A stretch of DNA of 58,536 nucleotides, the filler included, from Basidiobolus ranarum (taxonomy: Eukaryota), in assembly GCA_040143965.1 (NCBI GenBank). It is 2 parts of 2 records of this genome, joined end to end, with 100 filler letters (N's around TTAATTAATTAA, not from the genome) between each part and the next. Parts side by side here need not be neighbours in the genome. Positions count along the whole stretch, not along the records: positions 29,482 to 58,536 come from JASJQH010000107.1; 1 more part is not named here. One strand, 5' to 3'. Positions 7,282 through 57,400 of this stretch are shown piece after piece. How positions within the stretch are numbered: position 1 is the first letter of the stretch; each line of letters starts with the position of its first letter. The notes beneath the pieces were generated by a model, which saw nothing but the letters and a program-made list of their open reading frames with translations, did not search any database and had not been told where the DNA came from. The position numbers and the translations under genes are program-made.

Positions 7282-9453
7282 ATGCCTAGTATCAAGGATC
7301 CTAAAGCTGAAGCCATGACCGTTGAAGAGACCACAGTTGACCTTAAGGCCAAAAAGGAAAAGAAGGATAAAAAATCCGAGTCCAAAACTCCTGAAAAGAA
7401 AAAGAGATCAAGAGACGAGAAAACTCCCAAGTCTGATAAGAAGTCCAAGAAATCAAAGGACAGCAGTGAGGAGGAAAAAGAAGAAAAATCCTCCAAGAAA
7501 CGCAAGGCCAATGACTCTACTGCAGTAGAAGTCACTGCCAAGCCTGAGGCCGCTAAAGAAGAGTTCGTGATTGAACTTGAGGTTTCTAAAGAAGAGGACA
7601 TAGAAGATACCAATCCTGTCCCTGAAGAACTTCGTTTCTCTACTTACCGTATCTCCCAGAGTACAATTGATGCTCTTACTGCTACTGGTATTAGCTCCCT
7701 ATTCCCTATCCAATCCTCCACATTCGACAAGATTTATGATGGTGCCGATATTTTGGGTAGAGCTAGAACTGGTTCAGGAAAGACTCTCGCCTTTGCTCTT
7801 CCTATGGTCGAACGTTTGAAGGCCGCTGGAATTGACACAAGAAGAGGTAGAGAGCCAAAGATTTTGGTTATGGCACCTACCAGAGAATTAGCTAAACAAG
7901 TAGCTACCGAGTTCGAAAGAATCGGCAAAGAACTCTCTGTTCTTTGTATCTACGGTGGTGTACCATATGATCCTCAGTACTATGCCATGAAGAATGGTGT
8001 TGATGTAGTTGTTGGTACTCCAGGCCGTATTGCCGACCATATCGATCGTGGAAATCTCAAACTTGACCAAATCAACTTCGTTTGTCTCGATGAAGCCGAT
8101 CAAATGCTTGATATTGGTTTTGCTGATGCTATGGAGAAGATTTTGGAATGTGTAAAAGCTCAAAAGGCCGAAAAGACCAACCCTCCCTCTCATCAAACAC
8201 TTCTTTTCTCTGCCACTGTTCCTGAATGGGTTAACAGAGTGGTGAGAAAATATCTTCGCCCCGACCATGCCACTGTTGATCTTGTCGGAGATACCAAGCT
8301 CAAGACTTCCGAGTTCATTTCTCACGTTGCTATTCCCTCTTCATGGCAAGCACGTAAAGACTTCATCGGTGATGTCGTCTCTGTTTATGGTGCTGGTGGT
8401 AGAACCATTATCTTCGTGAACACCAAGGCTGAGGCTAATGAGCTTGTTCTCCATGAGCAATTAAAGCAAGATGCTCAAGCACTTCACGGTGATATTGCTC
8501 AAAGTCAAAGAGAAATCACTCTTAAGGGTTTCCGTGAGGGTAAACTCAAGTGTATCATTTGTACCGATGTTGCCGCCCGTGGTTTAGATATCCCCGAGGT
8601 TGATCTTGTTATCAACTACGAGCCCACACAAGATATTGAATCTTATATTCATAGATCTGGTAGAACCGGACGTGCAGGAAGAAAAGGTATTTGTGTGACT
8701 TTCTTCAAGCCACAAGAAGAACAATGGTTGAAAACTTTGCAAAGACGTACTGGTATGACTTTACAAGTGATTGGTGCTCCTCAACCTGAAGATATTATCA
8801 AAGCTACTGCTCTTGATGCTGCTAAAAACATCAAAGAGGTCTCTGCCAATGCTTTACCTTACTTCAATGCTGCCGCAGAGGAGCTCATCTCTGAGCTTGG
8901 TGCTGAAAAAGCACTCAGTTCTGCTCTTGCATTTATTGCCGGATATTCTAAAGGTGTCAACAGCCGTAGTTTACTCTCCGGTACCACTGGATACACCACA
9001 CTTATCTGTCGTCTTACCTACACAATTCGTTCCCCTGGTTATATTCGTGCTATGTTGAGTCGTCATTTCCCCAAGTTAGGTAATGATGATGTGCGCTTGA
9101 TGAGAATGACCAGAGATATGCAAGGAGTTATCTTTGACGTAAACACCGAACTCTTTGAATTCAAGGAAGATTGTATCTACCTTGGCGGAGACAAGTGGGA
9201 GGATACCACCTCTATTTCCCTTGAAGTTGCCAAAGAAATTCCCGAGTTACAAGAGTCTGAGAATGATTCCCGTGGCGGCGGTCGTGGCGGTCGCGGGGGA
9301 TTTGGAGGTGGTCGTGGTGGAGGCGGCGGCTTCGGTGGAAATCGCTCATTTGGTGGACGTGAGTCTGGCAGCGGTGGTCGTGGGGGTGGACGCGGTGGCT
9401 TTGGTGGCCGTGGGGGTGGTCGTGGTGGAAGAGGCGGTTTCAATCGTCGTTAA
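7282..9453 (+). CDS. DDX21: DDX21/DDX50-like nucleolar DEAD-box RNA helicase (GUCT-type region, RGG tail)
   Basis: 723 aa; ARTGSGKT, PTRELA, TPGR, DEAD, SAT, HRSGRTGRAGR; Lys/Glu-rich N-terminus; RSLLSG...GYTT post-core region; GGRGG tail. Confidence 0.9.
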   Translation: MPSIKDPKAEAMTVEETTVDLKAKKEKKDKKSESKTPEKKKRSRDEKTPKSDKKSKKSKDSSEEEKEEKSSKKRKANDSTAVEVTAKPEAAKEEFVIELEVSKEEDIEDTNPVPEELRFSTYRISQSTIDALTATGISSLFPIQSSTFDKIYDGADILGRARTGSGKTLAFALPMVERLKAAGIDTRRGREPKILVMAPTRELAKQVATEFERIGKELSVLCIYGGVPYDPQYYAMKNGVDVVVGTPGRIADHIDRGNLKLDQINFVCLDEADQMLDIGFADAMEKILECVKAQKAEKTNPPSHQTLLFSATVPEWVNRVVRKYLRPDHATVDLVGDTKLKTSEFISHVAIPSSWQARKDFIGDVVSVYGAGGRTIIFVNTKAEANELVLHEQLKQDAQALHGDIAQSQREITLKGFREGKLKCIICTDVAARGLDIPEVDLVINYEPTQDIESYIHRSGRTGRAGRKGICVTFFKPQEEQWLKTLQRRTGMTLQVIGAPQPEDIIKATALDAAKNIKEVSANALPYFNAAAEELISELGAEKALSSALAFIAGYSKGVNSRSLLSGTTGYTTLICRLTYTIRSPGYIRAMLSRHFPKLGNDDVRLMRMTRDMQGVIFDVNTELFEFKEDCIYLGGDKWEDTTSISLEVAKEIPELQESENDSRGGGRGGRGGFGGGRGGGGGFGGNRSFGGRESGSGGRGGGRGGFGGRGGGRGGRGGFNRR

Positions 9454-12800: not shown

Positions 12801-14270
12801 CTATACTCGTTTAACAAAATGAGCAAAGTTAAGATTGTATCCTTCAAATTCATAAAGAATACGATCAGTTTTACGATAACCTTTGATATCATTAATATAA
12901 ATACTTTTAGGTGGGGAATTCTCCAAATCATGATTGAACCGTTGTGGACGCCCTTGATTTCCACGTCGATCATGATGATATGGTGTATAGACATGGGAAT
13001 GTGTATTAACCGAGTCGGGATGATGACGTTGAATATTCTCAAAATGTGTCTCGGCTTGTGAATTGAAAACGGTGACGGTGAATTTCCCTGGCTGGAAGAC
13101 ATTCGTTACTTGCTTGATTAACTGGGAGAGAGCCCTGGACTCGGAGATATCTTCCCCCTTGGATAATGGAACATTCGTCTCGAAGCTTGCATAAGAGCAG
13201 GATTCCTCGGGAGTAACATGAATTGTATAGTAATTGTTATTAATCAATCCATTTAATGAGAAGCCACATGGAGTAAAAAGGAAAGAGTCAGTGAGAGAGT
13301 TGTCATAGATCGAACCTAAGCCAGTGATTCTCTAAAAGAAGGGTTATTAAATGAATAGCATAGAATGGATACAAAGAAATCTAAAACAAACCTCAACATC
13401 CTTGCCTCCTAACTCGGCATCAGGTTGATTAGCGTCAGGATGATGGTAGAATTGATCCATCGCCTTTGGACACAAATCAGTCATTAGAATCTCTACTGTA
13501 ACATCATCAACATCTTCCGGATCCTCCACCAAGGTTTGGTATGAAGACTCCACTGGTTCTTCTCCTTCGATCTTTAAGCAGTTGTCCTGAGGCGGAGTCA
13601 GATATAGAAACCAGTGATCCCCGTTAGTTTTGCCAACGGTGTATGCAGCACCATTATTGAACCAGCCATCCAGATACGCAACTTCATCAGACCAGTTACG
13701 ATGAGGGGCCTTTTGGAGATCTGGAAACATGAAACTCTTACGGGAGTAAAATACTCTCCAAATGCTCTCTAGACCTAGGGAGGAAGCAATCTCTATGATG
13801 CGTGGAACAGCTGCCAATAGAGTAGTGGTACCGCATGTTTTAAGGATCAACTTGTGAGGATAAACAAACATAGAGGATTCACTAAGAAGATAAGAATCGA
13901 CATGTTCATTTTTTATAAGATTTAGCACTTGACAGTGGACCAATTCTAGCATGGATTCCCATACTTTACGTGAAACAGTTCGCAATCCATATCGCTCGTA
14001 ATCATCACCGAATTCTTGTTCAAGATCGATTACTGATGTACCATTTGGAGAGTAACAAATACGACGTTCTTCGGGTAAATTCCCATCTGGAGAGCTGGAT
14101 AATGAGGAAATGGAGGAATCGGAACGGAATTGTTGACGAACAGTTTTTGCATCTGGACTAAACCAAAGTTCGAGTAGTTTTTCTGGTCCTTCAAATTGCC
14201 CAGTATAATATTCTTCCGAGTTAGAAGCAGGCTGAAACTCGCCGTTAAGTGAATTTTCTTCAAGTTTCAT
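12801..14270 (-). CDS. SPE2: S-adenosylmethionine decarboxylase proenzyme
   Basis: FEGPEKLLE, YLLSE/SSMFV autocleavage site, LKTCGTT, FTPCGFS, TIHVTPE, SYASFETN; intron 13332-13391. Confidence 0.97.
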
Positions 14271-29381: not shown

Positions 29382-29481
29382 NNNNNNNNNNNNNNNNNNN
29401 NNNNNNNNNNNNNNNNNNNNNNNNNTTAATTAATTAANNNNNNNNNNNNNNNNNNNNNNNNNNNNNNNNNNNNNNNNNNNN
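29382..29481. other. Artificial contig-joining spacer
   Basis: 44 N + TTAATTAATTAA (stops in all six frames) + 44 N = 100 nt. Confidence 0.95.
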
Positions 29482-36433: not shown

Positions 36434-37725
36434 ATGGTCCAAATCCAATCCATTGCCTACGGTGTTGTCGTTGCTCTTTTTTTGGCTGTGCCAATAACTG
36501 AGGCAGAGCAACAATTTATTCCAAACCAATATATTGTGAAGTTCCGTAATAGCGCTGACATCAAAAAAGGTAATACTCATGCTATTCAACATTTCCTTTC
36601 TCCGTAACATTATCTAACCTGTATTTTCGTATGACAGTCGACAGCTTGGTTCAGGAGAAGGTTCAGACTTTTAACAGTGAGATGACTTCTAGCTTCGGAG
36701 TTGCAGGTGCCACTGGTGGTCACAAAAATTTTACGATCAGTAAAATCCTTCAAAAATATACCATGGGTCACTTTAATGCTTTGTCTGGCACATTCAGCAA
36801 AAATCTAGTGAAATCCCTCCGTAGTAACCCCGACGTCGAATATGTAGAGCAGGAGCAGGTATTCAGTGTGGTTGGAGTCCAAAAGAATTCGCCTAACTGG
36901 GGCCTTGCTAGAATCTCACAACGCCAACGCAATCCAAATGCTCCTTATAACTTCCCCAATTCTGCTGGACAAGGTGTTGATGTGTACATTATTGATACTG
37001 GAATTAATACCAGACATAAAGACTTTGGTGGTAGAGCCACTTTACCCGTTAGTTTCATCAATGGTGAGCCTGTTGAAGATCTTCATGGCCACGGTACTCA
37101 TGTGGCTGGTATTGTCGGTAGTAAAACTTACGGTGTTGCCAAGAAGGTCAAATTAATTGGTGTCAAAGTACTTGGAAGAGATGGACGCGGAAGTACTTCT
37201 GGAATCATTGCTGGTGTCAACTGGGTAACTCGTAAGGTCAAATCGACTGGACGTAAAAGTGTAATAAACATGTCACTTGGCGGTGGTAATAGTAACGCAC
37301 TGAATGCTGCTGTAGATGCTGCTGTACAGGCCGGTATTCCTGTCATTGTGGCAGCCGGCAATGAAAGTCAAGATGCCTGTAATGTATCCCCAGCTAATGG
37401 CCGTTCTGCATTTACCGTAGGTGCTACTGACAGCTACGATAACGCAGCTGATTATAGCAATTGGGGCCAATGTGTGAATATCCAGGCACCAGGCTCAAAC
37501 ATTGTATCTACCTACAAGGGAAGTCCCAATGCTCGAGGCAGTTTGTCAGGAACAAGTATGGCGAGTCCACATGTAGCTGGCATTGCTGCTCTTTATGTTA
37601 GCCAAGGTTCGGCCAAATCGCCACAAGCAGTTTACAAGTCATTGCTTAGTCGTGCCACTCGTAATGTAGTTAGCAGATTGAGAGGCAATAGTCCCAATCT
37701 TATGGTTTATTCTTTAACTAAATAA
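36434..37725 (+). CDS. Secreted subtilisin-like (proteinase K family, S8A) protease with I9 propeptide
   Basis: Signal peptide, NQYIVKF; intron 36570-36637; catalytic IDTG, HGTHVAG, GTSMASPHVAG; AAGN. Confidence 0.96.
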
Positions 37726-38867: not shown

Positions 38868-39260
38868 AATTTTTCCTTTCATGGTTGCTTCCTGGCATTA
38901 TGTACCTACACTGTTAGTTGAACTCCACCATTTCAAACCATACAACACGAGCTACTCTAAGGACTTGAAAAAAGTCGAGTATGTGCGTTTACCTCTTTGT
39001 AAATATAGATAACCCCGATAAACTTTCATTATTCCTTATGAATTAAACACCACCAACACTAACTTTAACAAGGAATATTAAATCGACTAACAATACTGTG
39101 AATAAAATTTACATTCATCACTTATTACTGGTCACAAAGTATGCGTAAAGAGACTGTTAGAATCCGAAAATCCATAACTATTTTCTCATTAAGAAATGAG
39201 CAACAATCAAGCGAATTCCCACAAATATGTTAGTGCCCGGTCGCATGGAATAAAAGGGCG

Positions 39261-39451
39261 ATCGATGAACAATGAATCCTTAGGAAGTTTGTTTAGTCAT
39301 ATTTGATTGAATCGACTCCAACTATCCGTATGTGCAAATATGGGGACAGCTAGTCAATAGTCACTCTCCTTCCATGGTACATTATAGTAATGTTGGGACA
39401 TCTGAAATTCGTGATTGAATATTTCGCACGAGTTATTATTGTTCACGACAA
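39261..39451 (+). ncRNA. Unidentified 191-nt structured RNA candidate, copy 1
   Basis: One of three near-identical copies; four predicted hairpins ending in ACA; upstream TCCCACAA (-44) and AATAAAA (-12). Confidence 0.55.
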
Positions 39452-39887
39452 TCCAAACAAATTATACACAACATGTAAATTGTCTATTTGGCTTTAAAGA
39501 CCGGAGTTCGATGGTGTGCTGAAGTTAAACCGTAAACTTCAACTCTAACACATACAATGAACTTGAAAGCAATCTATATCACTTTGTTAGAGTCAAACTA
39601 AAAAGAGCTTGATTTATTGGATCATCATACTAAAGGTATTGAACCTTTTGCTACACCCAAAATGGAATCAGAACTGACATGACTGAAAACTAAGGTACAA
39701 CAAATAGTAACCATTGATCACACTATTTATCACCATAGAGAACAAACAGTGATCGACATTTTTTTCCGTTCCAGAATATTATCTCAATTGATAAACTAAA
39801 TATTATTGATCCACCTAGGTTATTCTGAGGAAAATCACTAGAATTCCCATAATATTATTACGAGGAATTTTGATGAATAAAAAGCAA

Positions 39888-40078
39888 ATCGATGAATAGT
39901 GAATCCTTAGGAAGTTTGTTTAGTCATATTTGATTGAATCGACTCCAACTATCCGTATGTGCAAATTTGGGGACAACTAGTCAATAGTCACTCTCCTTCC
40001 ATGGTACATTATAGTAACGTTGGGACATCTGAAATTCGTGATTGAATATTTCGCTCGAGTTATTATTGTTCACGACAA
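39888..40078 (+). ncRNA. Unidentified 191-nt structured RNA candidate, copy 2
   Basis: Colinear with copy 1; upstream TCCCATAA (-43) and AATAAAA (-12). Confidence 0.55.
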
Positions 40079-40414
40079 CTCATTCATACTACATACATAT
40101 TACCAAATCATATGAAATAACCTGAAATCACAACATAAATGAAAATCTGACATTTGCTGAAAAAACATGGTATTGTTAAAGTACGTTAGTATTAGGGTTA
40201 GTGTAGAAAGTAAGATCTCATCTTCTGAATTAAACTGGAAACCCAGCAAAAATCATTGCTTCATGTTGGTTATGTTTTATAAATAATTCCATCATCATAG
40301 TGCAGTCATAACTACACATATTCATCGGAATATCTATATTTTAATTCAAATTATGAGGTAATTAAACCCATCCCACAAACCCATTGGCGACAGGTGCTAC
40401 GTAATAAAAACTCG

Positions 40415-40605
40415 ATCGATGAGTAGTGAATCCCTAGGAAGTTTGTTTAGTCATATTTGATTGAATCGACTCCAACTATCCATATGTGCAAATATGGGGA
40501 CAGCTAGTCAATAGTGAATCTCCTTCCATGGTACATTATAGAAACGTTGGGACATCTGAAATTCGTGACTGAATATTTTGCGCGAGTTATTATTGTCCAC
40601 GACAA
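40415..40605 (+). ncRNA. Unidentified 191-nt structured RNA candidate, copy 3
   Basis: Colinear with copy 1; upstream TCCCACAA (-44) and AATAAAA (-12). Confidence 0.55.
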
Positions 40606-41258
40606 CTCATAATTCATACTGTAAAACTAAACAATTGTAAGCCTAAAATTGTTGACTCTTGTCTAGTATATTGGCATATTTTTCGTTTATGGAGCCAATT
40701 TTAATGAATCAGAAAATAAGAATCTTACACGTCGCAACTGTGAACCGGCATTGATGTTTACATTAGGGACGGAAGAACATCATAAGCGACATTTAGGGTG
40801 AAGTAATCAGCGCTATCAATGGGGGTTAGGGTTAGGTAGCTCTAAATGTTATCTGAATAGAGTTTTATTATGTTTTCATTGTTGAAAAACCCCTATAGCA
40901 TTTAAACAAAATAATTAAGTCCTCAGTCTAACCATTTTGACATTGAGATTGAAACGTACGATGTTTGCATATGATAAGCATAACCTGGTAAAGCCGCAAC
41001 CCTAATAACATAAAAGAAATGGGTGGCTACTGATAAGGTCCAATAAGAATCTCTAACTGGGTGTAAATATTCAAGATTGTTATCATTCGTGTATATATAT
41101 ATAGTAATTGTATTGGAGTGCTGAGATATCCAATACGTGCAAGATCATATTGGTGACGCCAATTGTAGTGCATCAAGATTGGTAAAAATCCCATGATGAC
41201 CATTTAGCCCAGCTATCTTAAGAAAGTCAACTGTAACCCGACAAACGTCCGATTGATT

Positions 41259-44200
41259 ATGTACGTGCGGAATCGGAAGCAGTTTCAAGATCCCTTACTC
41301 GATTCTTCGAACGATTATTGGGAAGATGACAATGATAAGGCTGACAAAAAGCCTATCTCCCGTAAAAGACTTCACATATCCAATAGACAATGGTATATTA
41401 TTGCCGGTTTAACGGTATTTGCAGCGTTTGTACGTTTCTATAGACTCAATCATCCGGATTCTGTTGTGTAAGTGTCAACCATATGTTTCCAATCACCTTG
41501 ATGATACGTAGATAATAACTAAATACCTCTGTTTATTTGATTTTTGAACATAGATTTGATGAAGTACATTTTGGAGGCTTTGCCAGCAAGTACATACACG
41601 GTAGATTTTTCATGGATGTACATCCTCCCTTAGCCAAAATGTTGTTAGCTGCTGCTGGATGGTTTGGTGGCTTCGATGGAAATTTCGACTTCAGTGATAT
41701 CGGAAAGTAAGTCTTCGACTGTTTATTATTAAAGCTATCTTTCAAATTACATTATGTTTAATTACGTTCATTTATTAGAGATTACGTTGAGCCAAAAGTT
41801 CCGTATGTTGCCATGCGTTTACTACCAGCAATTATGGGCTGGCTTTTAGTGCCCATTTCTTATTTGACAGTTAAGCTATCGGGTCACTCTACACCAGCCG
41901 CCACTCTGAGTGCAATTTTGGTGACTTTCGGTTAGTGTGGGCCTCAATTTATCCTGGAGCGAGGTGCATGTATCTAATGATTTCCTTGTTTTGAACAGAT
42001 AACGCCTTGGTGACTCAATCTCGATTAATTCTGTTGGATTCTCCATTGTTGTTCTTTACTGCCCTAACCGCACTTGCATGGGTACAATTTCATAATCAAA
42101 GTGAAAAGTAACTATTCCATGTTTTCTCTGATTGAAATAGCAACCATTGATCCAGTGTAAATCTCTTTATTTGCTCTAGCCCATTCAGCTCTTCATGGTG
42201 GTTCTGGCTAACTGCCACTGGACTGTTCCTAGGGTTATCTGCCAGGTATGGGTTTCACCCAAGTATGGTCAGTAATGTCCAAACTCGCTAATCAACTTCA
42301 TTCTAGCGTAAAATGGGTCGGATTGTTTGTGATCGCTTTAATCGGACTTTCTACTGTAAAGCAACTATGGGAGTATGCTGTAGATCCCTCTGTTCCTCCG
42401 GTATGTTGTGTTTTTTTGAATTCCGATTTGTTTGTACTGCTCCTAATGGCAACCTTTTAGAGAGTATTCGTAAGACACTTTGTTGCTCGTTCGATCTCTT
42501 TGATCGCTGTTCCAGTGGCGGTTTACTTGGTGATGTTTCAAATCCACTTCTTCTGCTTAAGAAACAGCGGTGATGGGAATGGATTCATGTCCCCAGAATT
42601 CCAAAGCACCTTGAGTGGAGGGCAAATCGGGGATACTCCAGCTGGTAATGATTTTTGACACATGCTAATCTATGTGGGGCTGATACTGACCTGATACTGA
42701 CCTGATACTGTCATAGATATTGCTTATGGCTCCAAGATTTACATTCGCCATTTGAACACCAATGGAGGGTATCTTCACTCCCATGATCTCTTTTATCCCA
42801 GTGGCAGTCACCGTAAGTTTGAGGTTCGAAGTTAGTATTTCGTGTGCAGCAACTTATCCATGATTATAATCAGAGCAACAGATCACCTTATATCCACATC
42901 GCGACGAGAATAACTGGTGGGTCATCACCAAGATAGTGGATACCGAGGTTCCATACAATCAGACCGAGCTAGAATGGGTAAAGAATGGTGATACCGTTCG
43001 ACTACTTCATCCCTCCACTGGAAAGCGTCTTCACAGTCACGATGTCCGTGCTCCCATTACGGAAGCAGAGCACCACAACGAAGTCAGGTAAGAAGGAATC
43101 TACGCAAGCACTTTCAGATATGTTAAATTAATTTGCTCTATATTCCAGTGGATACGAGTGGGGCGACGTGAATGATAACTGGAGAGTAGAAATCATCGAG
43201 CACGACGATCGTGTACCAGAGTCTGCTGACAGACTTATGGCAATCTATAGTAGATTCAGACTCGTTCATATTGGACAAAACTGTCACTTATTTTCCCACG
43301 ATGTGAAATTACCCAAATGGGCTTCCAGTCAGCAGGAGGTTACCTGCATGAAGAGCGCTAAAGTTGAGAAAACCTTGTGGTTGATTGACACTAACCAGGA
43401 CGAAAGACGTAAGTATTCTACAAAGGACGGGTATAGGCTGATTTGCTCGATATTCATGCTTTTTCATGTTTGCTTCTAGTTCCGGAAGATGCCCCTAGGG
43501 TTAACTATCGTAAACCTGGATTTTTCAAAAAGTTCTGGGAACTTCAGAAGCGCATGTGGTCTATCAACAATGGTTTGACAGACTCCCATCCTTTTGACTC
43601 GAGACCTTCTGCTTGGCCACTTATCAATAGAGGAATTAGCTTCTGGTCCAAGGATTCTTCGCAAATATATCTCCTAGGAAACCCTATCATCTGGTGGTCA
43701 GCTGGAGGCGCCATTGCTTTCTATATCGTCGTTAACATGTTGCTGATACTTCGTCAAAAGAGGGGCTATGATGATAGTGCATATGGTAATGTTAATAACG
43801 ATTTCTTCACCAGAATGATCCAAGCTAATATATTTTCTTTAACTGTATAGATTATTTCAATCTTTATTTCGCATCAGGTGGATTTTTCTTCCTTGGCTGG
43901 CTTTTACATTATATCCCATTCTTCTTGATGGGAAGACAACTATTCTTACATCATTACCTACCAGCAATCTACTTTGGTATACTTTTGCTTGGAGTTACAT
44001 TTGATTTGTTTACCTCTCGTATGAACACCAAACTCCGCTGGATTGTACTTCTAGTTAGTTCGATTGTAGTGATTTACGTGTTCTTGTCATTCAGTCCTTT
44101 GGTGTATGGTACACCATGGACTAAACAGCAATGTCTGCAACACAGATGGAGAGCTAGATGGGACTTTGATTGCGATCGTATGGCTAACGACTCTCCATCC

Positions 44201-51410: not shown

Positions 51411-53677
51411 CTACATGCTTTCTTCTAAAGATTTCCGGAATTCAGGATAAAGTTTAGGGTGTTCATTTTCAATAAATACTACCATCTCCTCGATACCCAA
51501 TGGGTACCTGTCCTTAAGTTCTGTATACAAGGTTCTCCACGTCTTCAAAGTAGGCTGGATGTTGAGTGCTTTCATATCGTGTGTAAAAGCTCGGGTGGCT
51601 TCGGAATAATTTCCGCAACGACATAATGCTTCCAAGTAGGAATTGAAGTTGTTTTCAGTGATAGGATGATTAGTGACTTCTAGTTGACTCCAAAGATCTC
51701 TGAGACGATTGTAGTCCTGGTGGTATCCGCAGGAATCTAAGAGAGCTGAAAGTGGAGCGGCGAGTTTCTCTTTATCGGAGAATTGTCTCTTTGCTTGGTC
51801 CCAAATGTTGAATACTTTCTCAAGATCTCCGGTGAGGTTATAACAATTCATCAAGATTCCGTATGTAGTTGGGTTGCCGCGAATTCCGCGAAATTGAGTT
51901 TCCTCATAAATTTCTAAAGCGCGAGGGATATCTCCATTCTTGGAGTAACCATTGATCAAGGTATTGTAAGTATTGATATTGGGGAAAATCCGTGCGAACT
52001 TCATTTCTTGGAGGACTTCGTGGCATTTTTCAAGAGAATGGCATTCGAAATAGGCGTTCAGCATCGTGTTAAATGTGATCACATCGGGGGACACCTTACG
52101 TTGACACATATTATGGTATATTTCCCTCATTCCCTCCAAGTTGAGGTTCTTGGCATAAGCATTGATGAGGGTGTTGTAGGATACGATATCACAAAGATGC
52201 CTAGCTTGCATCTCATTGAAGAGTTTAACTGCGTGATCAAGCTTGGAGTTCTTTACATGGCCATTGATGAGGGTGTTGTAGGTAATAGTATCAGGGCGGA
52301 TGTTGAATCGCGCAAAGTTTTCCAAGAACTTGGTAGCCTCCTCAAGTCGAGAGTTTCTCACATACGCATTGACAATAGTATTTAGTGTGATTACATCCGG
52401 CTGAGTGCTTCCGGAGGCCATTTCATTGAACAGACCCATTGCTTCGTCGAAATTTCCTTGCTTCAAATGAAGATTAATCAAAGTGTTGTATGTGACAATG
52501 TTACGAGGGAGTTGACGCGTCTGCATCTCATGATGAAGAGCCATGGCTTGCTCGATATTGTAGTTTTTGGCGTGTCCGTTGATGAGGGTGTTGTATATCA
52601 AAGTATCTGGAATGATATTTCGACGTAACATCTCTTCGTAAATCTTCATGGCGCTGTCAATGTCTTGATTCTTAGCATAGGCATCAATCAAAATACTAAA
52701 TGTGACTACGTTGGGTTGAACATTTCGGTTTAGCATGGTCTCGAACATCTTATCTACTCCTTCCATGGAGCTCTTTTTAGCAAAAGCGTTCAAAAGTGTA
52801 TTGTATGTGACTGTATCTGGAGTGACATTATTGGCAATCATTTCGTCGTAGGTGAGGATGGCTTGATCTAATCGGTTGTATTTGGAGTAGATATCAATGA
52901 GGATGTTATATGCCGAACTATCAGGACGTACATTGGAGTTCCGTAATGCCTTGTGTACTCTCGTGGCATAATCAAGCTTGCGTTGGCGTTTACAAATGTT
53001 AAGAAGGATGTTGAAAGTGACATTGGTAGGTCCGATATTCTGCTGTAACATAGTGTCATAGACGGAGAAGGCTTGTTCCGGATTGATCTTGCCCGTGGCG
53101 TTGATCAAGTCATTATATATAACTGCATCGGGTTGAACTCCTCTATCGATCATCTCTAAAATTAGCGACTTGGCTTCACCAACTTGGCCGCGTTTGGCAT
53201 AATGCGAAACCAAAGGGGAGTAATCTCGAGCGTTTTTAAACATTTTTTTGGCGTCCAATTGATCTATACAAAAAACAACATGGGCACAACGGCGCTGGAT
53301 TTCACCCGATTTCCCTTTGAAACCGTTCAATAACTGGAGTAGACGAGACAATTGGTTGGCAGTTAGTTTACTTTCAAGTTGGTTATCCATCATAAATTTG
53401 AAAGCGTTCCAAGCAGCATCAGCGTTTCTCTGTACAAGGGCATTTTGAAAACTAGCAACCACTGAACCCAGATTAGAACTTTCAACCGTATTATGAGGAG
53501 GTTCATTTCGAGTTAAAATAAGTGGTGATTGAGTAGCGATATTCTTTTGATCGGAACGTTTCTTTAAAAGAAGTGAGGGAATAGACCTCTCTGGAAATAG
53601 TGTGAAACGTTTGAACATTCTCAACTGTAAAATAAGGGATTTCCGAACTGTTGTATTCCAAAGGAGCAAGTCACCAT
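51411..53677 (-). CDS. Pentatricopeptide repeat (P-type PPR) protein, probably mitochondrial
   Basis: About 16 tandem 34-36-aa repeats (xxTYNTLINxxxK...M....PD); start at ATG 53618, or at ATG 53677 plus intron 53625-53674, giving the basic presequence MLRMFKRF. Confidence 0.93.
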
Positions 53678-54425: not shown

Positions 54426-57400
54426 CTAAAGGTGTGTGGTGACCGTCATGGATTTGGCATGGATCAGGAAAGTGGGTGGAAGATCCTTGACCAAAAGCTT
54501 TAGATCACCCATATAATATTCACACTTCTCTTGGTCTTCGCAGGTGCCGGCGTCTGGTGCTGGTAACGAGGTGAAGAGAATCGAGGTGTCCTTGGAACGT
54601 AGGCGCATCAATTCATTCAGAATAATATTTTGAGCATGCGGGGGAAGATCGTTGAATTCGGTGGAGGAGTAATTGCTAGTGGCAACTGATCCAGTGGTTG
54701 AGGGTGGGACACTGTGAGTCTGCTCCTCCTCAATATCTTCTATGTCGGATAAATCCGAATCCTCACTCAAGTGATCGTCACCACGTTCTGGGATGGGTAC
54801 ATTAATCTTCATCCCTACAACGCCTGATTGCGAATAACTTAATGAAGATTGGCTAAAGTTCTTCCCGGATGAGCGCAAGTATTGAGAAGAACTACTTTCA
54901 ATTGGCATACCACCCGATTCTTCGTCTATAGTGCCGTTTTGTTGTGACGACTGCTCCAAATGGTCGTTCTTATTGGAGATATGCTTCCCTTTAACAATGG
55001 CTGAGTATGATGTGAGTTCTTCGCAATCTAACCAGAATACATGAAGTTCTGCTTCTACTCTCAAATTCTCTAGTAATGTCTCAACTCTTCTTCTCTCTTC
55101 TTCAACATCACGCTGGTGTTCTACAAAGCACATCACACGAAGGATGAAGCTTTGTTTCCAGTACGGGACCATATGCAAGATACATCCCATTTGAAGTACC
55201 ATAGTATATGTATCAAAGTTGGTCAAGTATCCATTTTCGTTATACGCACTTGGAATGGACAATTGAATTGGCCACATATCTATGTATTTCTTGCGAGATT
55301 TGTGGTCTGTATGTGTGGAGAAGAGGTTACTATTATCATCTAGAGGAGGCAAGTCTCTAAGATTGGAGAATCCGTGTGCAATTGCCACCGCTTTGTTCAA
55401 AGCTAAGGTATCCTCAATGATAGAGACATAGTCAGTAATAGATATCGGGGTTTCTTTTCTGTTTCTATCGGTAGGGAGAGAGCCAACGATTGGAATTGAA
55501 ACATGCTTCTTTTTAGTATTTTGACTAATTTCTTGACTTGAGGAGTTAAAGAACCCGAGAACCACAATGTTAGGGCGCATTCCACCAAGACCAGAGCCCT
55601 AAGAAAAGATTCAACGGTTATTGATTCGAAGAAGGGGAATGGTTTACGGATATGGATACTTACTACAATAAGATTCCGGGCTCCAAATCTTTCTGAATCA
55701 GAGATGGTAAGTTGAACAAAAGCCTTGATCTGTGTTATATCCACGAATTTCAGCCAAACATTTTGTTGTTTTCTGAATTCGTTCAAGTTGGTGCGAAAGT
55801 CCCCTTTCAGAATATGACCCAAAATGTACAAAGACCCTTTCTTGAGAGAGTTGCAGAATTGAATCAAATGGTAGTTGCTTCTTGGGTTATTGACCAAAAG
55901 AAGAATCTAAAGTAGTAGACTAGTTTAGCCTTTCTCAAGGTGTAAATGTATTGTATTTCATGTGCTACCTGAGGACGCCAGAATTTCACATGCTCCTTGC
56001 GAGTGTCGAGTCTCAATAGGTACTTACGAACTTGGTGATAGATCAGACTCTGTGTGACATCTCCCCAAGACTTTGGCAGGGTAGTGTAATGAATTACTCC
56101 AAACATAATACTCATGAATGCAGTTGAAAGAGTGGCCAGCAACGGATCAATAATGAAAATAGTAGTAAAGCACAAGGAAACTCCAATAAGCCCAGTGTAC
56201 CACTTGAAATGGTGGAAAGAGGGCCTGAAGTTGGGTGCAGAGCCAATCTTGAGCAAAAAGCAAGCCAGGTTGGTGATTCCAAAGGTAAGAATGGTTAGGA
56301 TAGTGAAGTACGGAGCCACGATTCCGATACTCCCAGTAAACAATAGTAGTTGGATCAAAATGTAGGAAAAGATGATGGCGTAGGTAGGATCATCAGATCT
56401 GTCAGTGCCTTGATCGAATAAACTCAATATCGGGATGAGATGATCTCTAGATAAAACAATTATTTAAGTCCTAATTGAGCAGCAATAAGGTTGCAGAGGA
56501 CTTACCTTGCAATGGCTTGAAGAATCTTCGCAGATGATATCAAAGCACTGAGCGTAGCAAAAGTAGCCGTTGCAAATGCGCCAGCAACAACCATAATGGG
56601 AAGGACGGAGATATCCTGAAGAATACTCAATCGCTTGACGAGAGTCTCTTTGGTAGTAGAAGCAGCCAACATGATGTTGATTATCATGTAGAGCATAAAC
56701 GTAACAACTACTGCAGCTAGAGTTCCTTTGGGTATTGACTTACTAGGCTTGCGAAGATTGCCAGACATCGATGTTCCTAGAATTCCTTCTGATTAATATG
56801 GTTCTGAGGTGATGATTAATGAGAGTCGAATTACCGGCCATAATTCCAACAAAGCATGGAAACACCAAAGCAAATATGCTTTGGTAATTTTCAACCTTGT
56901 CTGGATTTTCTGCCGAAGGTAAGTAACCAGGCCACAGATTCTCTTTTAAAGTTTCCATGCTTAGACCAGTATATTCAATGTCGTTGTCAATGTCAGTAAA
57001 AGGGGATCGAATGAAGAAAGAGAGAAAAATGATCAACGTCGACACGAGAATTATGAATGAAAGGAATATCGAAGTTCTGGCGAATAACTAGAGTGTGGTA
57101 TTAACATGTTGTAGGTAAGATTAGTACGTATATGTTGATGAGGGGTTGCTAGGTGCTTACCTTGGATCCAATGAGGCAAACACCAGTACAGCACAAAAGT
57201 AAGACCGAACTATAGAAAAAGTTACACCACTAAAAAGAAAATACGCAGAAATTAATGAATCCATCGAATAAGGCTTATTATGCAAATGCAATAGCTTACT
57301 TTTCCCTCTGGCAAAACGTTTAACATGGCGCCTTGTTGCTCTCCGAAAGTTGATATCAAGGGTTGAACAAAAGCTAGCAAGTTGATAACTCCACCAAGGA

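Follow-up and report, generated by a model that had tools for sequence, protein, structure and literature searches.

Pseudouridylation guides of the box H/ACA small nucleolar RNA (snoRNA) class follow a rule by which the guide pocket lies 14–15 nt from the box (excerpts of PMC2664660). On 18S ribosomal RNA (rRNA), human SNORA24 guides the pseudouridines Psi863 and Psi609 (excerpts of PMC6776443), Psi863 being 95% modified (excerpts of PMC6182160), and the motif rm1 (GGAAU; human U861–A868) is the docking site of snR30/U17 (PMC2664660). According to excerpts of the fungal snoRNAome survey PMC5824354, fungal snoRNA families are generally represented by one sequence per organism, with paralogues occurring, and only 7 of 50 H/ACA families are common to early-branching fungi and Dikarya; Basidiobolus is absent from the text of that survey, whose supplements may list a family for the 18S site considered below. 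H/ACA snoRNAs of early-branching fungi are almost unannotated. Here, a 191-nt element present in three copies was analysed in 58,536 nt of Basidiobolus ranarum DNA (assembly GCA_040143965.1; the window, meaning the whole stretch of DNA that was analysed). The copies are read as a previously unannotated, plus-strand tandem family of three box H/ACA snoRNA genes, a reading to which we give a probability of about 0.65, since the element carries hairpins, boxes, pocket distances and one guide match of the kind by which the class would be recognised at the sequence level.

The three copies occupy positions 39261–39451, 39888–40078 and 40415–40605 of the plus strand (copies 1, 2 and 3; element position n of copy 1 is window position 39260 + n), and are colinear and without indels, as they had been described in a sequence-only reading of the window. 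They differ pairwise at 6/191, 13/191 and 12/191 positions (93–97% identity), with 15 variable sites across the three copies, 9 private changes in copy 3, the most divergent, and a 47-nt stretch (element 21–67) that is invariant in all. A three-copy nhmmer profile matched the copies only (E ~1e-69 each), and no fourth copy was found by it in the window (5 further matches, at E 1.2–7.9). The spacers of 436 and 336 nt, which the sequence-only reading had called unrelated, proved to be so, as did the outer flanks, all six Smith-Waterman comparisons giving z between −0.2 and 1.2 against shuffles. Of the sharp ends claimed in the same reading the 3′ end stood, three-copy conservation stopping at element 191, one base past ACA, with CTCAT..TCATACT immediately downstream common to copies 2 and 3; the 5′ end did so only in part, motif-level similarity continuing upstream. 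Target-site duplications, which that reading had listed as a sign that would speak for a mobile element, were absent (longest flank-to-flank repeats 6 nt, not abutting the copy ends), and a poly-A, A-rich or simple-repeat tail was absent at the copies. Highly similar cores beside unalignable spacers are best explained by purifying selection, by gene conversion on the transcribed part, or by both.

Folding of the element depended on the strand. Compared with dinucleotide shuffles, plus-strand folding gave z −3.28, −1.53 and −2.71 for copies 1, 2 and 3, and the minus strand of copy 1 gave z −1.12, 27 of 200 shuffles being equally or more stable; the RNAalifold consensus energy was −47.9 kcal/mol on the plus strand versus −26.6 kcal/mol on the minus strand. 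The asymmetry is due to G-U pairs, which make up, for example, 4 of the 13 pairs in the invariant hairpin 26–57, and it agrees with the plus-strand orientation proposed earlier. When element 64–194 was folded alone, an identical two-hairpin minimum free energy (MFE) structure was obtained in all three copies, in the order hairpin, ANANNA hinge, hairpin, ACA.

In copy 1, hairpin I (39286–39317; element 26–57; 13 bp with 4 G-U, loop UAUU) is invariant in all copies. Hairpin II (39330–39382; element 70–122) consists of a lower stem (70–75/117–122), a pocket formed by AAAUAU (76–81) and UUCCAUG (110–116), and an upper stem (82–86/105–109 and 89–92/98–101). It is followed by the H box AUAGUA (39384–39389; element 124–129) and by hairpin III (39394–39447; element 134–187), with a lower stem (134–140/180–187, A185 bulged), a pocket formed by UCUGA (141–145) and AUUAU (175–179), and an upper stem (146–153/166–174); the ACA box (39448–39450; element 188–190) lies directly 3′ of hairpin III. 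The same features lie on the plus strand at 39913–39944 (hairpin I), 39957–40009 (hairpin II), 40011–40016 (H box), 40021–40074 (hairpin III) and 40075–40077 (ACA) in copy 2, and at 40440–40471, 40484–40536, 40538–40543, 40548–40601 and 40602–40604, respectively, in copy 3. The H box reads AUAGUA in copies 1 and 2 and AUAGAA in copy 3. In all copies the base of the upper stem is 15 nt from the H box for hairpin II (109 to 124) and 14 nt from ACA for hairpin III (174 to 188). The ANANNA box (ATAGTA/ATAGAA) and terminal ACA are thus as the sequence-only reading had described them. The complementary segments that it had proposed as stems (TGAACAA/TTGTTTA, CCGTAT/ATATGG, TTCCA/TGGGA and CGTGA/TCACG) are present, and its G-U arithmetic is correct, but they are not helices of the fold common to all copies, and its statement that every change keeps pairing rests on a 5′ stem that probably lies outside the functional fold.

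The window was scanned with a home-made H/ACA grammar, which required an ACA, a hairpin (lower and upper stems of at least 4 pairs each, a 3–10-nt pocket on each side), a box distance of 14–16 nt, an ANANNA no more than 9 nt upstream, and another hairpin of this kind. On the plus strand 3 of 920 ACA trinucleotides matched, exactly the three copies, and on the minus strand none of 1,037 did. In the H/ACA model (hairpins I–III, 47 pairs), 140 of 141 cells were standard pairs, compared with 39–44% when the partners were slid by 1–3 columns. Four of the five stem changes keep the pair, each being one-sided (G89-U101 to A-U, G137-U183 to G-C, G157-C165 to G-U and U152-A168 to U-G), and one breaks it (U-U at 152/168 in copy 2). 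The H-box change (site 128) falls on an N position of ANANNA, and of the remaining variable sites, 131 is in the linker, 102 and 104 are in a bulge, 155 is in a loop, 80 (variable in copy 2 only) is in the hairpin II pocket, and 9, 10, 12, 20 and 68 belong to the 5′ part. This pattern, small as the numbers are, is what selection on an H/ACA fold would be expected to leave.

Guide targets were searched with the standard geometry, in which the bases 5′ of the target U pair with the 3′ strand of the pocket and those following U-N pair with its 5′ strand. The ribosomal DNA (rDNA) scanned came from eukaryotic contamination in bacterial assemblies, located by primer scan, and from metagenome contigs. 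The hairpin II pocket matched the fungal-type 18S sequence CAUGGAA-U-A-AUR with 7+3 contiguous pairs and at most 1 G-U (contigs L015, L037 and L154). This was the top recurrent hairpin II match across eukaryotic rDNA, occurring in at least 13 of 36 operon-bearing loci among the matches listed. On one complete fungal-type operon (5,855 nt, 1,358 U), the 7+3 quality was reached by random 6+7-nt guides in 76 of 4,000 trials and by shuffled pocket letters in 56 of 4,000. With unlimited G-U pairs the random-guide figure climbs to 921 of 4,000, so that the strength of the hairpin II match lies in its Watson-Crick content. The human 18S context, taken from SCARLET oligonucleotides, is GGAA-U863-AAUGGAAUAGGACC (excerpts of PMC6776443), and the L154 18S reads CAUGGAA-U-AAUGGAAUAGGACG at the site; judged by this context, the predicted target U is the homologue of human 18S U863, and it sits inside rm1. 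That hairpin II guides the modification of this Psi863-equivalent U is a prediction for which we see the chances as evenly balanced.

For the hairpin III pocket, four candidate sites were considered and rejected as within chance: large-subunit (LSU) rRNA GAUUUUGAU-U-UUCAGUACG (4+4 bp), 18S GGUGAAAU-U-CUUGGA (3+5/6 bp, 2 G-U), 18S AAU-U-GUCAGAGG (3/4+5 bp) and 18S AAUGAU-U-AAUAGGG (a mismatch adjoining the target). Some of these may correspond to human Psi966, Psi918 or 28S 4269/4270, a correspondence that was given no weight. A sarcin-ricin-loop motif scan of viral contigs for LSU 3′ sequence returned 28 loci, none of them rDNA by blastn. The target search suggested in the sequence-only reading was thus productive for hairpin II (7+3 bp to 18S) and gave nothing above chance for hairpin III, with stand-in rDNA used for both. 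The primer scan also showed that at least 58 contigs in bacterial assemblies or metagenome-assembled genomes (L001–L058) carry the eukaryotic ITS4 primer site, and that whole fungal- or plant-type rDNA units are present in prokaryote records (e.g. L015, L027, L034 and L037) as eukaryotic contamination.

Element 21–67, with hairpin I, is without a pocket and without a following ANANNA. The longest Watson-Crick match of the 5′ domain to rDNA was 8–9 nt, within the 8–10 nt obtained with shuffles, and extended antisense elements in this domain were rejected on that ground. A 13-codon, ATG-started open reading frame (ORF) (MNNESLGSLFSHI in copy 1; element 5–46, window 39265–39306) is open in all copies, its four nucleotide changes among copies being synonymous or Asn/Ser; it is probably incidental, since it covers one quarter of the conserved block only.

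Upstream of the copies, 17 of 60 ungapped columns within 60 nt were invariant, compared with 4.3 ± 2.0 in random window triples, a count reached by 0 of 20,000 such triples. This signal centres on TCCCAY(A)AA, at about −44, and on an invariant AATAAAA at −12 to −6, a run of 7 invariant columns of a length found in 0 of 20,000 random triples; five variable bases separate AATAAAA from the element core. The first motif, a candidate promoter element, reads TCCCACAA in copy 1 (39217–39224), TCCCATAA at the same distance in copy 2 (39845–39852) and TCCCACAA in copy 3 (40371–40378), all on the plus strand, and the TCCCAY(A)AA-type pattern has 5 matches in the window, two of them outside the repeat cluster (47581 and 49404). 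AATAAAA, a putative TATA-like box, lies at plus-strand positions 39249–39255, 39876–39882 and 40403–40409; read on the minus strand it is a T4-5 run. We infer that both motifs are promoter elements, and their conservation fits independent promoters for each copy. The palindrome ATCGAT opens each copy (39261–39266, 39888–39893 and 40415–40420), right after the five variable bases, and could be a protein-binding site in the promoter-proximal region. Telomere-type hexamers were also observed at 40763–41005 (TTAGGG three times and CCCTAA once within ~240 nt), between copy 3 and the downstream O-mannosyltransferase gene, with one more at 40192 in spacer 2; the window holds 23 of them, which is near chance by estimate, and the local cluster alone stands out. 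This cluster may presumably be a promoter element of the Tbf1/telobox type.

Known RNA classes were searched across the window. Rfam gave 0 matches at gathering score, and a tRNA/tmRNA scan gave 0 genes. The motifs m1 (up to 2 mismatches) and m2 (up to 1 mismatch), by which snR30/U17 is defined, had 0 matches in all three copies, which led to rejection of that identity. Orthology to SNORA24 found no support, the U609 equivalent being unmatched (pocket pairs 0+3 and 0+0). The RNA is therefore filed under neither SNORA24 nor snR30/U17. A protein-coding reading was also rejected: the copies span ORFs of only 30–47 codons (stop to stop), and their changes show no synonymous bias.

Several observations weigh against an H/ACA assignment. 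The grammar thresholds were set with the element already known and without a known H/ACA RNA as positive control, and two of them were loosened to admit copy 1, in which the lower stem ends 3 nt before ACA. No Rfam H/ACA family matched the copies even in a permissive search (E up to 10, on 39000–40900 and on copy 1 alone), the best matches (E 0.086–10) being to unrelated C/D families, and an invariant 24-mer of the element had 0 matches in metagenome contigs, yielding no homologue from another genome. The RNAalifold and covariation check put forward in the sequence-only reading returned the stable plus-strand consensus given above, but two-sided changes in 0 of 47 pairs among three sequences, hence no covariation in the strict sense; a shuffle control of the pair changes says nothing, because there are three sequences only. 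The rDNA scanned is a stand-in for Basidiobolus 18S, and the hairpin III pocket (5+5 nt) was without a target above chance in it, with best matches of 8–9 bp. Copy 2 carries both A80U in the hairpin II pocket and the U-U mismatch at 152/168, and with A80U the 3′ guide helix keeps 1 of its 3 bp, a pairing of 7+1. The full 191-nt MFE of copies 1 and 2 is a closed fold with a terminal stem (2–15/176–188), not the H/ACA fold, and is more stable than the H/ACA model by 9–15 kcal/mol. Finally, AATAAAA at −12 to −6 is too near element position 1 to be the TATA box of a transcript starting there.

The last two points are connected. In most eukaryotes the TATA box lies ~25–32 nt from the start, and AATAAAA as a TATA box would place the transcription start near element 14–21. 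With such a start, the 5′ arm of the rival terminal stem would not be transcribed, which would remove the conflict with hairpin III and would fit the higher variability of positions 1–12 (3 of the 15 variable sites). As to copy 2, its two changes lie at window 39967 (element 80) and 40055 (element 168); its folding score is the weakest of the three (z −1.53), and it may be a paralogue that is decaying or has been retargeted. In operons with a duplicated motif, the copy 2 pocket pairs instead with the next AAUGGAA-U-AGG repeat of 18S (6+3, 2 G-U), to which it appears to fit slightly better, and no conclusion was drawn from this.

The closed fold could be the real one, the element then being a structured plus-strand small RNA of another class with coincidental H/ACA-like features. 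We consider this unlikely, even though the closed fold is both the RNAalifold consensus and the full-length (191-nt) MFE of copies 1 and 2, the changes at 9, 10 and 12 keep its terminal stem via G-U pairs, and the invariant 47-nt stretch 21–67 has no role in the H/ACA model. Copy 3 lacks the closed fold because T-to-C at 183 creates an A8-C183 mismatch in the terminal stem, and its full-length MFE takes the H/ACA-type 3′ hairpin; the same T-to-C turns G137-U into G137-C in the H/ACA model. An RNA of another class would need the boxes, the two 14–15-nt distances and the 18S match all to be coincidental, against 0 background matches of the grammar in 117 kb (both strands), and the position of the TATA-like box suggests that the 5′ arm of the terminal stem may be untranscribed. 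Three insertions of a short non-autonomous mobile element (a miniature inverted-repeat transposable element (MITE), short interspersed nuclear element (SINE), solo long terminal repeat or snoRNA-derived retroposon), for which no cellular function would be needed, could account for the sharp core limits, unrelated flanks and 93–97% identity, as well as for copy ends that are inversely complementary over ~13 bp (TCGaTGAACAATGA / TTATTGTTCACGA in copy 1). This complementarity, however, decays in copies 2 and 3 only by changes that are still G-U on the plus strand, except at 183, and the folding is strand-asymmetric and dependent on G-U pairs. With no target-site duplications and no tail, three copies in shared orientation within 1.35 kb and none elsewhere in 58.5 kb, no match of the 24-mer in metagenome contigs, and upstream motifs kept at a fixed distance while the intervening bases differ, a pattern of selection and not of uniform decay, insertion is quite improbable.

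Two further explanations make use of the DNA around the copies. A minus-strand RNA polymerase III transcript, starting near TTGTCGTG and stopping at the T4-5 run 5 nt past the conserved block, would explain why TTTT(T)ATT occurs on the minus strand at an equal distance after the block in all three copies. It is scarcely credible, given that folding of copy 1 on the minus strand does not beat shuffles, that the minus-strand consensus energy is about half that of the plus strand, and that hairpin I and the variable sites would have C-A mismatches there in place of their G-U pairs. No tRNA-like gene was found, nor an Rfam match on either strand, A and B boxes were not seen by eye, with no formal test made, and TCCCAY(A)AA, downstream of the terminator, would be left unexplained. 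The copies could also serve the downstream O-mannosyltransferase gene as cis-regulatory repeats, acting as promoter modules, enhancer modules or alternative first exons, with conservation at the level of DNA instead of RNA; they lie 650–2,000 nt upstream of it in the same orientation and each starts with the palindromic ATCGAT. Near-uniform conservation over 191 nt far exceeds what binding sites would account for, the block end lacks a GT donor, and the strand-asymmetric RNA folding and the H/ACA grammar would stay unexplained, which makes this very unlikely. A bolder variant of the H/ACA reading, which we regard as distinctly doubtful, is a lineage-specific composite H/ACA RNA in three homogenised copies, in which the fully invariant 60-nt 5′ domain would add a second activity and the pocket, by docking on rm1 (expansion segment ES6), would take part in the folding or processing of 18S, as a competitor or a helper of snR30, in place of or in addition to directing one pseudouridine.

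Overall, the multicopy, independently transcribed, H/ACA-like small RNA on the plus strand that the sequence-only reading had proposed is supported by the 64–194 fold, the grammar scan, the 18S match, the upstream motifs and the strand asymmetry. The locus would then hold three tandem, separately promoted plus-strand genes for one box H/ACA snoRNA of some 175–195 nt, laid out as a 5′ stem-loop (26–57), hairpin II (70–122), H box AUAGUA (124–129), hairpin III (134–187) and ACA (188–190). Like other RNAs of the class, the RNA would be expected to assemble with Cbf5/dyskerin, Nop10, Nhp2 and Gar1, and its hairpin II pocket would pair with 18S pre-rRNA 5′-CAUGGAA-U-A-AUR-3′ and present the unpaired U for isomerisation. 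The copies would form an old tandem array in which nothing but the functional parts has been kept and the transcribed block has been homogenised by gene conversion, a pattern established for other multicopy small-RNA genes; such an array is favoured over three insertions by the motif-wise upstream conservation, the one orientation, the clustering and the lack of target-site duplications.

The cluster sits in a 2.3-kb stretch without long ORFs. Upstream of it lies a subtilase-family gene (36631–37725, with a further ORF to 38867), and downstream, on the same strand, a protein O-mannosyltransferase (PMT)-family gene begins near 41260, placing the cluster 650–2,000 nt upstream of that gene. The window has ~38% G+C and intron-split genes. 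Pfam matches identified a DDX21-like DEAD-box helicase with a GUCT domain (7282–9453), 81% identical to a Basidiobolus meristosporus CBS 931.73 protein (next fungal matches at most 59%), an S-adenosylmethionine decarboxylase (13347–14270), a 735-aa pentatricopeptide-repeat protein with ~12 repeat units, many for a fungus (51411–53618), and the C-terminus of an SLC12-type transporter (54426–55580). Two N runs (29382–29425 and 29438–29481), 44 bases each and 12 apart, are filler at the join of two records.

If the H/ACA reading is true, a snoRNA would be gained for a pseudouridine known in humans (18S Psi863), placed in the snR30/U17 docking motif, and TCCCAYAA and AATAAAA would become candidate motifs for locating further small-RNA genes in the lineage. 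The gain would be one of annotation, not of new mechanism, and knowledge of the RNA class would be unchanged. To our knowledge, an equivalent of Psi863 is absent from the S. cerevisiae list.

Compared with described systems, the element shares with the box H/ACA guide class the hairpin-hinge-hairpin-tail layout, the ANANNA and ACA boxes, pockets 14–15 nt from the boxes, and rRNA complementarity in two parts flanking an unpaired U-N. It differs from the class in a 5′ domain of ~60 nt with an extra invariant stem-loop, without pocket or rRNA complementarity, and in forming a family of three tandem gene copies, and it has no sequence similarity to any Rfam H/ACA family. With human SNORA24 it shares the predicted target of hairpin II, the U homologous to U863; the U609 equivalent is unmatched and sequence similarity is lacking even at E up to 10, which would make the element at most a functional analogue of SNORA24 for one site. 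Like snR30/U17 (PMC2664660), it would belong to the H/ACA RNAs and dock through a pocket on the same part of 18S, rm1, but it is without m1/m2 and has ordinary pseudouridylation geometry, in the 5′ core hairpin and not the 3′ hairpin. Like MITE/SINE-type repeats and snoRNA retroposons it is short, has a sharply limited core between unrelated flanks, and has ends that are inversely complementary; it is set apart from them by the lack of target-site duplications or a tail; unlike MITE/SINE-type repeats, its copies are clustered in one orientation and have promoter-like motifs conserved upstream.

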